Shown: piece by piece, positions 15,450-19,566 of the stretch
Layout: the number at the start of each line of letters is the position of its first letter
Numbering within the stretch: position 1 is the first letter of the stretch
Assembly (NCBI GenBank): GCA_051942245.1
Contig: JAVECL010000030.1
Location: 62,001 to 87,626, forward strand
Source of the DNA: Trypethelium eluteriae
Taxonomy: Eukaryota
DNA: 25,626 nucleotides
Direction: 5' to 3'
Notes under the pieces: generated by a model
Database searches by the model: none
What the model was told of the DNA's origin: nothing
What the model saw: only the letters and a program-made list of their open reading frames with translations
Made by a program: the position numbers and the translations under genes

Positions 15450-15737
15450 AATATGTCGTCTGACATTCTTCGAATTACCAATCGCTTTGATTTATGAGGC
15501 ATTCATTCAACCACTCAACCATGGGCGAGGGTGGGACAGGATTAGTGTTTGGAGGCCCGAGCTTCCGCACACACGTCAAGGCACATCCATTCCTTTTCTT
15601 CTGCCCATCTTCCATGATCATCCTCGTGAGGAGTCTGCACGGCTTCGCGCTTCACTGGGTGAGTGTGATCATGATATCTACGAGGGGCACAGTGGTAAGT
15701 CTCTTGTCTTAACCTTTGCGTCTCGCATGCTACTCAT

Positions 15738-15805
15738 AGGATGACCACAACAATCCAACTCCGAAAGCGTCATGCAGGAAACAAACATCTCTAGAATTAC
15801 TCTGA
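15738..15805 (+). ncRNA. Box C/D snoRNA with two guides (U45/SNORD45-like 18S target and SNORD69-like 25S target); coordinates box C to box D
   Basis: C AGGATGA 15738. Guide AACAATCCAAC 15749-15759 + D' CCGA pairs 25S GUUGGAUUGUU. Guide CTCTAGAATTAC 15789-15800 + D CTGA 15802 pairs 18S GUAAUUCUAGAG. Confidence 0.88.
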
Positions 15806-16084
15806 TCGCCATGCATGCTCAATCTTGCTCTTAATCTCTATTTTGCATTAGCATGTCGCTAATCGCAATTTTCTATCAGTAGCTTTGAAACGCATCGCCG
15901 TCAATGCTGTCCTTCCACTCAAATACATTCTCCACCGACCCCTTTAAGCTTGATGGTATGGACTGAAGGCTTTGATATGTGGCTCAAAGCCTCGTGATAG
16001 GACATGGAAGCATACAGGAGTGGCCTTGGAGCTTGGTGTATCTATGAAAGGTACGGAAATTTTTTTCTACCGATTTTGGTTATC

Positions 16085-16168
16085 ATGATGATCAATCGAC
16101 ATTGGAAAGGCATTCCTCGAACAGAACTTATATTGTTGAATTGTCTTACTAGTTTCAGCCTTGTCTGA
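16085..16168 (+). ncRNA. snR41: Box C/D snoRNA snR41 homologue (18S Gm1126)
   Basis: C ATGATGA 16085, D CTGA 16165. The 13-nt guide AGTTTCAGCCTTG (16151-16163) is complementary to 18S CAAGGCUGAAACU; D+5 falls on the G after CAA. D' CAGA at 16122 with guide AGGCATTCCTCG. Confidence 0.92.
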
Positions 16169-16286
16169 CCCCTTCCAATTTCGTCAAATTCCTTCATTGA
16201 TCTTCTGTTGATCCTGGTTCACTAACATGCCCCTTCGAACAGGTAAACCCTCGTGAACTTTCTTCTCCTCTCTTTCATCCTTTTAC

Positions 16287-16410
16287 ATGAAGAAGATTTG
16301 AACGTACGGGCGGACAGAACGTGCTCCTCACTCGTAGTCCACTACAAGCAGAGCGTACAACTTTGCGGGCCACCGAGTGGGGGGAAACTTGTTGAGGATA
16401 CGTCACCTGA
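16287..16410 (+). ncRNA. snR70: Box C/D snoRNA snR70 homologue (18S Cm1639)
   Basis: Variant C ATGAAGA 16287. Guide ACGGGCGG 16306-16313 + D' CAGA 16315 pairs 18S CCGCCCGU, with D'+5 on the C equivalent to E. coli C1402. C' TTGAGGA 16392, D CTGA 16407. It sits between snR41 and snR51, as in the yeast cluster. Confidence 0.85.
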
Positions 16411-16533
16411 TCGAAAGCACACCTGCTGGAGGAGATCTTGATTCTTATCCAAGGAAAATTTGCTGATATTGCTAGACAGGTATCTTGATCGTTCATTCCA
16501 TCCATGACCGCACGTTCTGTTCACCATCACTAC

Positions 16534-16688
16534 ATGATGATTCTTATTCACACTGTTTGAACGGATTGCCTTGTAACGAGGGCATGTCCGGAGATGATCT
16601 ATCAACACTGAAAATTCTGATTTAATGAGGCACGTTACCATCGTCTACTCGTACCAGACGTACGGACTAACTGATGACTTCAGCCTGA
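16534..16688 (+). ncRNA. snR51: Box C/D snoRNA snR51 homologue, interrupted by a nested intron (16630-16683), with two alternative D boxes
   Basis: C ATGATGA 16534. D' guide ATTCACACTG + TTGA (25S Um2729). ACACTGAAAAT + CTGA 16617 (25S Um2724). CTGATTTAATGAG|C + CTGA 16685 (18S Am100) forms only after removal of 16630-16683. Confidence 0.9.
16630..16683 (+). other. Nested 54-nt GC-AG spliceosomal intron inside snR51
   Basis: GAG|GCACGT donor, GACTAAC branch point 16665-16671, TTCAG acceptor. Length equals the commonest intron length in this window. Removal extends the 18S complementarity and restores exact D+5 spacing. Confidence 0.8.
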
Positions 16689-16871
16689 AATTAGATGGTT
16701 CCATTTTTACATGCGCATTCTGCTTCTCAGCTAATTTGTCTCTGAAACTCTACTAAATGGAAGTTCATAGGCTTACTGCCTTCGCCCACGCGTAGACACG
16801 GGCTTGATGCCCAGGTAGCTTCAGGTACGTATTATGACCACCGGACCGATTTCCTCGACGATTTACTTTAT

Positions 16872-16940
16872 GTGATGATTCCTCTATCTTAGCGGATTCC
16901 ACTGCAACATCATTGAAGATTTTAACAGACCCTTTTCTGA
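16872..16940 (+). ncRNA. Box C/D snoRNA with a guide to the 25S GTPase-associated region
   Basis: C GTGATGA 16872, C' TTGAAGA 16913, D CTGA 16937. The 13-nt CTTAGCGGATTCC (16888-16900) is complementary to 25S GGAAUCCGCUAAG and is followed by a degenerate D' (CTGC). Located in intron 16825-17010. Confidence 0.82.
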
Positions 16941-17094
16941 CCTTTTAGCCCTGGCCGTTGGAAAAGTGAAGATCACCGTCCTTGCACATTGGCTGATTTT
17001 TCGTGCCTAGGTTTAGAAGTAGTCACGTTTGGTCGGTACCATACCCTCTTGAAAAGGTAATGCTCCTTGCCCGGTCCATGATTTGAGCGGCATC

Positions 17095-17166
17095 ATGATG
17101 AATTCATAAATCGTTGTGTTCTTTCCGAATATTTTTGAAGAAACGCATATCATCTTGGAGAACTGA
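17095..17166 (+). ncRNA. Box C/D snoRNA with two guides (U55/SNORD55-like 25S target; 5.8S A43 target)
   Basis: C ATGATGA 17095, D' CCGA 17125, C' TTGAAGA 17135, D CTGA 17163. TCATCTTGGAGA (17150-17161) pairs 25S UCUCCAAGGUGA with 1 GU. TCGTTGTGTTCTT (17111-17123) pairs 5.8S AAGAACGCAGCGA with 2 GU. Confidence 0.86.
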
Positions 17167-19566
17167 CATCAGTCCCTTTCACCAAGCATATCAAAAGTCC
17201 AGCCGACTTTGGAGACGAGGTAGCTGATGACTAGTTCAGGCAAACGCGATCCAAATTGGGAGCGGCTTCTCTGGCAGGTCACTGTGTGGCAACTGTCTAG
17301 AACTCCGCAGAACGATTCGGAGATCTTATTGTGCACGAGGAGCATCAAGAGCTCCCCATTAGAGCCACGAAATCTGCAAGACAGATCTCTCTCACCCCAG
17401 ATGAGTCCAGTATTTCTTCGATACTGCCCAACAGAGCCCATCGCTGGCAGCAGGACGGCGGGCAGAAGATTGGGGTTTTCAAGGTCATCATTCTCATAGA
17501 GTCATAGACATGTACCAAAAAACTTCCCCCTATCCTTATGAATGACAAATTCGCAAATCGTCATGATTGGGGGGGAACTATACGTCATCTATTCGTAAAG
17601 CCAGTGAATACATCATCACACCTGCACCTCATTACAAAATTGTGGCTTTGAGGGGCGTATCGGGCGATCAGGATAGCGGAGGAAGACCTCAGGCGACCAT
17701 GCATTCACCCCTTGAAAATGTAGCCAGGGTCAGCCCGTGCCTCGTGGAAATTACCGATGGCCTCACCTCTCCATGGAATACATGGTGACATTTGTATGTA
17801 TCTGACGAAATGACGTTTCTCATGCATAGAAGTTTGGAGTCCATGAAAAAACAGGCACGCCATTTACGTAATCTTGAATATGCGTTGATCTTTTCTGAAA
17901 TTTTGAATGTAGTCCTGCCATAATCAAAGATCTCTACCTCATCTATGTGATGAACCTAGGAAGAAGCACGTCCTACCTACCCATCATCTCACCTTTCGCT
18001 GGCCGAGGATCGCATCGCGATTCCAAGCACGTGGATTTTAATACCTAAGCTCGCATACTCTTCCTACATACGGTCCAACTGCGGCGGTCCGATAAGGCGA
18101 GATAAATGGGACGTACCGGTAGCCGAGGGTCAAAATAATCTGCATCAGTTGCTGTCATGCTCATGCGACGGCTGACACGTGCTCTAAGATTAGAAAATAG
18201 AACGAAACGGAGCTGGCCGTACGCATGAGCATGCACTGCGGCCCGTCCGATAATCGGGAGCCAACGGCGTGCCCACAACATGGAGCTGCCCCTCCGAACA
18301 GCGCCGCAATCCGCAGGGCAAAGGACTCCCTTGCGAAGAAAATATTCGGAGCGGGGACAAACCTTTCAGACCGATCTTAGGAAAACAGCCGGCGGCGTCA
18401 GAAAATTTGGTAGGTCCGAGGTGACGTTGCTCTACGCTCCGGTGCTCCAACTGCATGACGACAGTCAACTACTTCGTACCGAAGACACTTGTCCACAGAA
18501 GGGAGTCAGCTTTTTCCGGAGCAGGATTACACAAGAGCTTGGATAGAAAGCCTGGCTCTTCCGCATTCCGAAAACCCTCTAATCATCCACTCTGTCACCC
18601 TGTATGGACTAGTGATCTCGCACAACGTGCGATGGTACGTAGCTGCTAGCGTCAATCGATGGCACTTCTGAGTTCTGATCGCCGCTCGCATCCTCAAAGC
18701 CAGGAGGACATGGCGTGCACCACTGGGCTGGAACATGAAGAAACGTCTCCGGAGCCAATCATGGGGCATGTAAGCGCAGCGAGCCAATTAGAGTTTGGAT
18801 AGTCAGGAACAAGAGCCGGCAGATGCACGCGTGAAAACAGGGCAGCCGGCCGGTCCTGAGTTCCGAGGCACGAATTAGCCCATCCGTCATGACACCAATC
18901 CAGGGGTATCCTTATGCCGGCCCATGCTCGGCTGGGGTGAGGCCCGGCAGAAGGCTCTAGTCCACTTGCGACGCAAGAAAAGGGGCACTCCGTAACTCGT
19001 CTAAATTGCCTGTGATTTCCGTGAAGCTTCTAATCAGGACCCCAGTAGGTACGGAGTACTTTCGGGGGTGATAACAAAGCCCCCCACAGCGAGCGTGGGA
19101 GTCCCAGAAGTGACTCCAACAAGGCTGCTGTTCATTCTCATGCGGCTTCTATTATTATGGTCTGACGGATGGGCCAACATGACATGCAGCATCGCAGACT
19201 TGCGGAAAGAAAACATGGTGAAGCAAGCCAGAATTTGGGGTACCAAGGCAGAGGGCTAAAAAGCAGAGGACCACCAACGCGACAAAACAAATCATAGGCG
19301 TGAAAGTGATTCGCGGGCGAGATGGCGGGCAGAGGGCGATGACGCCGGGGGCGGAGATGGTGACAATGACATTTGATCCGAATTGGGCTAGATGGGCAAG
19401 ATACTTAGCCTGGAAAAGCCGCCAATAAACTGGATAATCAGCATAATTTCCGTGGCATCGGTGGCATAGTGGTAGTGTGGAATCGTGGATGGTGTGCACG
19501 TTCAGAAGGGGCAGTGGTGGAACAGCGGGAGCCCGGAAGGCAACCTTCCTGTGCATCGCTCCTGCC

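Follow-up and report, generated by a model that had tools for sequence, protein, structure and literature searches.

Abutting introns at two zero-length exons in a snoRNA host gene of Trypethelium eluteriae: a probable further instance of recursive splicing in the snR41-snR70-snR51 cluster

Does a snoRNA host gene whose introns adjoin one another, with no exon left between them, still splice those introns one at a time? The locus considered here raises this question twice, at two places where an intron end is directly followed by GT. It lies in a stretch of 25,626 nt from Trypethelium eluteriae (GenBank assembly GCA_051942245.1, contig JAVECL010000030.1, positions 62,001 to 87,626 of the forward strand), which we call the window and number from its first letter. 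The arrangement itself is already known: it is the "intron-intron-intron" complex intron of the snR41-snR70-snR51 cluster III, published in 2013. The design of this gene cluster has been in print since 2010-2016, and the window adds a further instance and not a discovery. Taking the letters of the window together with their conservation in relatives and with the literature, we think it quite likely that positions 16051-16770 hold three end-to-end spliceosomal introns that are spliced out stepwise.

The host is apparently a non-coding snoRNA gene, on the plus strand, of a filamentous ascomycete. When we scanned for box motifs and splice signals and read the hits against the sequence, six box C/D snoRNAs emerged on that strand, one per intron (Table 1), and the exons between the six introns measure 171, 0, 0, 54 and 46 nt. 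Rfam places two of the six, Afu_455 and Afu_294, which are of the A. fumigatus type. A Pfam scan of six ORFs of 62-132 aa, taken from both strands between 15346 and 17499, returned no family at threshold, one ORF having a sub-threshold TSP_1 match (E 0.026), and the host therefore looks non-coding.

The first snoRNA is called U45-like in part for what we take to be its 18S target; its sole Rfam match, SNORD45, is non-significant (E 9.9), and its guide motif occurs upstream of snR41 in 18 of the 34 long loci among the relatives described below. The snR70-like RNA matched no family in an Rfam scan, its guide and boxes are kept in relatives, and its name too draws on a target, presumably the decoding-centre C of 18S. 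The GTACGG at 16304 was considered as an alternative donor and ruled out, as it lies inside the snR70 guide. Both names follow the available text of Luo et al. (2013, PLoS One 8:e58547, PMC3596301), from which we take U45 for the snoRNA at ~15733-15810, and snR70 for the one placed between snR41 and snR51. The snoRNA at ~16867-16943 gave weak, non-significant Rfam matches only, and its guide motif is present in 2 of the 34 long loci, the window included, which suggests an addition confined to certain lineages. The TAG that closes its intron at 17010 is followed by GTTTAG, which supplies the letters AG/GT (the stroke marks the splice site) and a possible second acceptor 6 nt further on; this GT is not part of a GTA.

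Table 1. Features of the snoRNA host gene in the window, in order along the plus strand; splice sites and snoRNA boundaries are those predicted from the scans described in the text.
Feature	Position	Strand	Signals and remarks
Upstream snoRNA intron	15695..15879	+	donor GTAAGT; branch GCTAAT 15858-15863; acceptor CAG 15877-15879
U45-like box C/D snoRNA	~15733-15810	+	C-like AGGATGA 15738-15744; D CTGA 15802-15805
5' exon, 171 nt	15880..16050	+	ends GAAAG
Intron I, 192 nt	16051..16242	+	donor GTACGG; branch ACTAAC 16221-16226; acceptor CAG 16240-16242
snR41-like snoRNA (Rfam Afu_455)	16081-16170	+	60.8 bits, gathering 48
Junction 1, zero-length exon	16242..16243	+	CAG/GTAAAC
Intron II, 237 nt	16243..16479	+	donor GTAAAC; branch GCTGAT 16462-16467; acceptor CAG 16477-16479
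snR70-like snoRNA	~16279-16417	+	C-like ATGAAGA 16287-16293; guide ACGGGCGG 16306-16313
snR70-like boxes	16315-16318; 16407-16410	+	D' CAGA; D CTGA
Junction 2, zero-length exon	16479..16480	+	CAG/GTATCT; 4-nt exon ACAG if the acceptor is TAG 16475
Intron III, ~291 nt	16480..16770	+	donor GTATCT; branch TACTAAA 16751-16757; acceptor likely TAG 16768-16770 (AAG 16763 possible)
snR51-like snoRNA, two pieces	16530-16629 and 16684-~16692	+	C ATGATGA 16534-16540; D CTGA 16685-16688
Nested intron ("intron B" of Luo et al.), 54 nt	16630..16683	+	GC-AG: donor GCACGT; branch ACTAAC 16666-16671; acceptor CAG 16681-16683
Exon, 54 nt	16771..16824	+	starts GC; strong donor GTACGT follows at 16825
Intron with a box C/D snoRNA lacking a family name	16825..17010	+	branch GCTGAT 16992-16997; acceptor TAG 17008-17010
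Box C/D snoRNA of that intron	~16867-16943	+	C GTGATGA 16872-16878; D CTGA 16937-16940
Exon, 46 nt	17011..17056	+	ends GAAAAG
Last snoRNA intron	17057..17239	+	donor GTAATG; branch GCTGAT 17223-17228; acceptor CAG 17237-17239
snoRNA Afu_294	17091-17169	+	70.9 bits, gathering 43

The two junctions had been pointed out in a sequence-only reading of the window, and their letters are as it gave them. At junction 1 the ACTAAC with branch A 16225 precedes the CAG, and GTAAAC begins at 16243; at junction 2 the GCTGAT with branch A 16466 precedes both a TAG (16473-16475, the alternative acceptor of intron II) and a CAG, and GTATCT begins at 16480. Branch sites thus stand 13-17 nt upstream of both AG/GT junctions. 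In the window alone, the chance that two acceptors are each followed by GT is about (1/16)^2 = 0.004. At the level of sequence, splicing at both junctions would form GAAAG/GTAAAC and GAAAG/GTATCT, each a regenerated 5' splice site. Neither abutting donor of the window has a G at +5, so that both are weak, and this counts against the stepwise model.

To see these junctions among relatives, we used the 3'-terminal 18 bases of the snR41-like RNA as a query against metagenome contigs; this gave 105 loci, 80 of them with flanks. A snR70-type guide lies 90-300 nt downstream in 76 relatives and in the window, and a snR51 guide follows in most. The order snR41-snR70-snR51 is found again in relatives. 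From the set made up of the 105 loci and the window, 29 loci were dropped for the counts at junction 1, either for having no snR70 guide motif within 300 nt or for having it at less than 90 nt (L012); for those at junction 2, further loci went out because they lacked the snR51 guide motif or the D-box pattern or reached the end of the contig. Spacers were clustered at 70% identity, by which the independence of the metagenome relatives is only approximated. Six loci (L001, L003, L026, L043, L086, L097) have the 18-base snR41 3' end in different surroundings: other snoRNA-like boxes lie upstream, and the snR70 guide is missing downstream. They probably belong to other groups of eukaryotes.

Between the snoRNAs the spacers have diverged beyond alignment, and what they have in common is a branch site, about 15 nt, and an AG directly followed by GTA. 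The series of a branch-like motif, 3-42 nt and AGGT was recovered from 49 of the 51 clusters at junction 1, and there from 65 of 67 distinct spacers; in shuffled spacers it turned up 3.0 times on average and 8 times at most. For junction 2 the figures are 33 of 39 clusters and 41 of 49 distinct spacers, against 2.9 on average and 7 at most after shuffling. As a control we took the last snoRNA intron of the same host gene. A branch site with AG/GTA is found in 49/51 clusters at junction 1 and in 30/39 at junction 2, as compared to 2/26 in the control (Fisher P = 2e-15 and 3e-8, respectively). Since AG/GTA has been kept while the spacers are otherwise unalignable, both GTs appear to be under selection as donors. 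A stricter rule, which takes the first AG lying 5 nt or more past the branch A and asks that GT follow this very AG, was passed in 41/51 clusters at junction 1 and 22/38 at junction 2, and these figures count against the stepwise model; the rule fails wherever an AG sits very near the branch, as it does at junction 2 of the window, where TAG 16475 precedes CAG 16479. In one relative (L018) junction 2 reads AG/GC, its close relatives having AG/GT.

The control bears also on a third case that had been suggested at the end of the last snoRNA intron, where CAG 17237-17239 is followed by GCAAAC at 17240. The letters are present, but the bases after this acceptor vary freely in relatives, and in the two control clusters that do have AG/GTA both sites end a short exon rather than adjoin the acceptor. 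Downstream of 17240, up to 17790, there is no C box, snoRNA or strong splice signal. The suggestion is therefore dropped, and we read GCAAAC as the start of the next exon and not as a donor.

A few relatives appear to retain an exon at one of the junctions. By eye, this is so at junction 1 in L025 (~60 nt) and L052 (4 nt), and at junction 2 in L016, L048, L068 and L078; the retained exons (L068/L079 being listed together) span 4 to ~70 nt. In these six relatives GT follows the acceptor in 0/6, and a donor of its own closes the exon (again by eye), which suggests that the GT is present only where it is needed as a donor.

According to the available text of Luo et al. 2013 (PMC3596301), intron I alone was missing from 18 of 42 ESTs, introns I and II from 14, and all three from 10, with no EST in which II or III had gone before I. 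From this they concluded that splicing proceeds stepwise from 5' to 3', noting that the same products would arise if one donor chose among three acceptors, and that their 42 ESTs and RT-PCRs leave room for the latter. In the window, the corresponding alternative would be that only the donor at 16051 works, paired with any of the acceptors at 16242, 16479 and ~16770, that the lariat would hold one to three snoRNAs, and that the internal GTs are unused. The absence of G at +5 from the internal donors of the window and most relatives (see below) would suit such a scheme. It would, however, leave unexplained both the GTA that follows the internal acceptors in nearly all clusters at junction 1 and most at junction 2, so rarely matched in the controls, and its disappearance from the exon-keeping relatives; in addition, exonucleolytic trimming of a lariat with several snoRNAs would require extra endonuclease cuts. 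We consider a single working donor unlikely. That GTA is kept after the internal acceptors, and is absent both from the control and from the relatives that retain an exon, favours stepwise splicing over it.

The distance from each snoRNA to its splice site points the same way. In relatives, the end of the D box lies a median of 71 nt (64-100) from the 3' splice site at both junctions; in the window the distance is 74 nt at junction 1 (counted from 16168) and 69 nt at junction 2, and across all six introns it ranges from 69 to 82 nt. With the branch point ~15 nt before the AG, this places the snoRNA ~55 nt upstream of the branch point. The optimum for splicing-dependent assembly of box C/D snoRNPs is given as ~50 nt upstream of the branch point in the available text of a review (PMC8162545). 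A fixed spacing so near the known optimum argues that each internal AG serves the snoRNA before it as its genuine 3' splice site. The earlier proposal that exons had shrunk to nothing and that the AG/GT junctions serve to give each snoRNA an intron and lariat of its own is supported from three sides: by the conservation of GTA against the control, by this spacing of ~71 nt, and by the published work on the cluster.

Alternatively, tiny exons might persist, either through use of the acceptor TAG 16475, which would leave the 4-nt exon ACAG, or through use of the donor GTGAAC 16254, which would leave an exon of 11 nt. The TAG is the first AG past the branch A, at 9 nt; L052 appears to keep an exon of just 4 nt; and exons of 1 nt have been reported in Candida clusters (Donovan et al. 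2016, PMC5033589, in the available text). Against this, the branch-to-AG distance has a median of 15-16 nt in relatives, which favours CAG 16479, at 13 nt, over TAG 16475, and the GT at 16243 stands in the very place of the GTA found in 49 of the 51 junction 1 clusters, whereas GTGAAC 16254 lies in unconserved sequence. Tiny exons strike us as less likely still than a single donor. The sequence-only reading had left junction 2 with an exon of either 0 or 4 nt; the letters of both acceptors are indeed there, and the spacing in relatives speaks for 0 nt.

That 16051 to ~16770 is one large intron, from which endonucleases free three snoRNAs in a plant-like manner and without internal splicing, is very improbable: its mature RNA would look identical, and rice intronic snoRNA clusters are mentioned in the available text of Liu et al. 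2009 (PMC2780460), but the splice signals inside it (branch sites, acceptors and donors) have been conserved, each set at a fixed distance from its snoRNA, and in related species ESTs reveal that the internal acceptors are used (Luo et al. 2013, PMC3596301, likewise).

If splicing is stepwise, as we prefer, the weakness of the internal donors calls for comment. Abutting donors are nearly always GTA, and G at +5 is found in only 17 of 79 (10/49 at junction 1, 7/30 at junction 2). By comparison, it is found in 62 of the 71 first donors of the complex, in 37 of 38 donors of the nested intron described below, and in 5 of 6 donors that still stand behind an exon, these last judged by eye (Fisher P against the abutting donors 9e-17, 4e-16 and 0.004, respectively). 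The exon end before intron I is conserved and A-rich: in 71 loci it is CAAAAG in 25, TAAAAG in 16, GAAAAG in 6 and AAAAAG in 6, so that 53/71 have AAAAG. In the window, GAAAG precedes intron I (16046-16050) and GAAAAG precedes the last snoRNA intron (17051-17056). It is possible, if rather doubtful, that the abutting donors are kept weak on purpose, being ignored as long as they lie behind a pyrimidine tract and YAG and becoming usable only when an A-rich exon end has been ligated to them. If this were true, donor weakness would hard-wire the 5'-to-3' order of the ESTs and keep U1 off the overlapped acceptor. We found no mention of donor weakness or strength in the available portions of the main text of Luo et al. 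2013 (PMC3596301).

Intron III holds a complication of its own that was absent from the earlier reading. Its snoRNA is matched weakly as snR51 in a permissive Rfam scan (16530-16636, 32.9 bits, below gathering), and a nested intron sits inside this RNA, between the guide TTTAATGAG and the D box; excision would give ...TTTAATGAG/CCTGA. The guide and D box being split in this way, the D box would be restored only after the nested intron has been removed, and since the D box lies past the nested intron the outer intron must end beyond it. We place that end at TAG 16768-16770 as the likely site, 82 nt past the D box, the median in relatives being 80 nt. Of 38 loci, 37 have a GT donor after the snR51 guide TTTAATGAG, with a branch site and CAG/CCTGA further on; the window alone has GC as its donor. 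This GC, at 16630, is either the donor of a functional GC-AG intron or a sign that the snR51 D-box guide fails in this genome. At the other end of intron III, the acceptor is itself followed by GTA in 13 of 30 relative clusters, despite an exon of ~40-60 nt and a strong donor thereafter; in those relatives this exon may be optional or heading to loss. The window has AG/GC at this acceptor.

We propose, then, the following course of events. The two interior exons having been lost, the acceptor AG of one intron directly adjoins the donor GT of the next, and the exon at 15880-16050 would act as the 5' exon that is joined in turn to each later donor. Intron I (16051-16242) would leave first, which would join ...GAAAG to GTAAAC; intron III (16480 to ~16770) would be removed likewise, later than intron II; and the nested intron at 16630-16683 would also be taken out, restoring the D box of snR51. 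Recursive splicing of this kind, stepwise from 5' to 3', would yield one lariat per snoRNA, and each snoRNA would be freed by debranching and exonucleolytic trimming. For this genome we infer the order of the steps, the separate lariats and the trimming. If the proposal holds, the locus is a clean natural case of recursive splicing with zero-length exons that gives each snoRNA a lariat of its own, and it shows that non-coding host exons can disappear while their splice signals stay.

In animals, the consensus of the ratchet points of recursive splicing is a strong GTAAGT donor. The window shares with the ratchet points of Drosophila and vertebrates, and with Cryptococcus BOT1, the juxtaposed AG/GT, the zero-nucleotide exon and the removal of an intron piecewise (bioRxiv 10.1101/224170, in the available text). 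The same source describes the BOT1 case, in Cryptococcus neoformans, as a zero-nucleotide "pivot point" in one intron of 375 nt. Ratchet points there subdivide very long introns, or in Cryptococcus the single one of 375 nt, of protein-coding genes, and the available text of that source (bioRxiv 10.1101/224170) reports no cargo in the pieces. The animal features of a strong GTAAGT donor and a very long intron are not those of the window, where donors weak at +5 (GTAAAC, GTATCT) go with introns of 192-291 nt and a snoRNA in each piece.

Plants are not known to use internal splice sites when they free clustered intronic snoRNAs. Their clusters resemble the window in that several snoRNAs lie between two host exons (Liu et al. 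2009, PMC2780460, in the available text). They differ in that each snoRNA of the window comes with a full set of splice signals, the internal branch sites and AG/GT being present and conserved.

Closer parallels are found in yeasts. In the snoRNA polycistrons of the Candida clade and Debaryomyces (PMC5033589, in the available text, and Mitrovich et al. 2010 cited there), snoRNA introns are separated by exons of 0 or 1 nt, and it is the upstream exon that regenerates the 5' splice site; the window resembles them in both respects. Donovan et al. 2016 (PMC5033589) use the term recursive splicing, the exon size being zero, and in the same available text state that cluster III of D. hansenii needs recursive splicing because its snR41-snR70 exon is zero. 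Unlike the window, these loci belong to yeasts; their branch sites are TACTAAC, and some of their junctions overlap, which makes the exon size negative (PMC5033589, likewise).

The closest counterpart is cluster III itself as described in the available text of Luo et al. 2013 (PMC3596301), where it lacks the two interior exons in all Euascomycetes sampled and where introns associated with U45 and U55, as well as an intron B that holds no snoRNA, are added to the cluster. The window agrees with it in the order of the snoRNAs, the two missing interior exons, the upstream U45-type intron, the intron nested in snR51 between guide and box D, and the apparently non-coding host (PMC3596301, in the same text). 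A few of the metagenome relatives keep an exon at one junction, as compared to none in the Euascomycetes that the available text of Luo et al. (PMC3596301) covers; these relatives do not necessarily contradict the "all Euascomycetes" of that study. The window differs from cluster III in having one more snoRNA intron (16825-17010), which is missing in most relatives, and in having a nested intron whose donor is GC, where the 37 other loci have GT. What the analysis adds to the published texts, in their available parts, is the conservation of AG/GTA over ~50 diverged lineages, the lack of G at +5 in the abutting donors, and the GC-AG nested intron.
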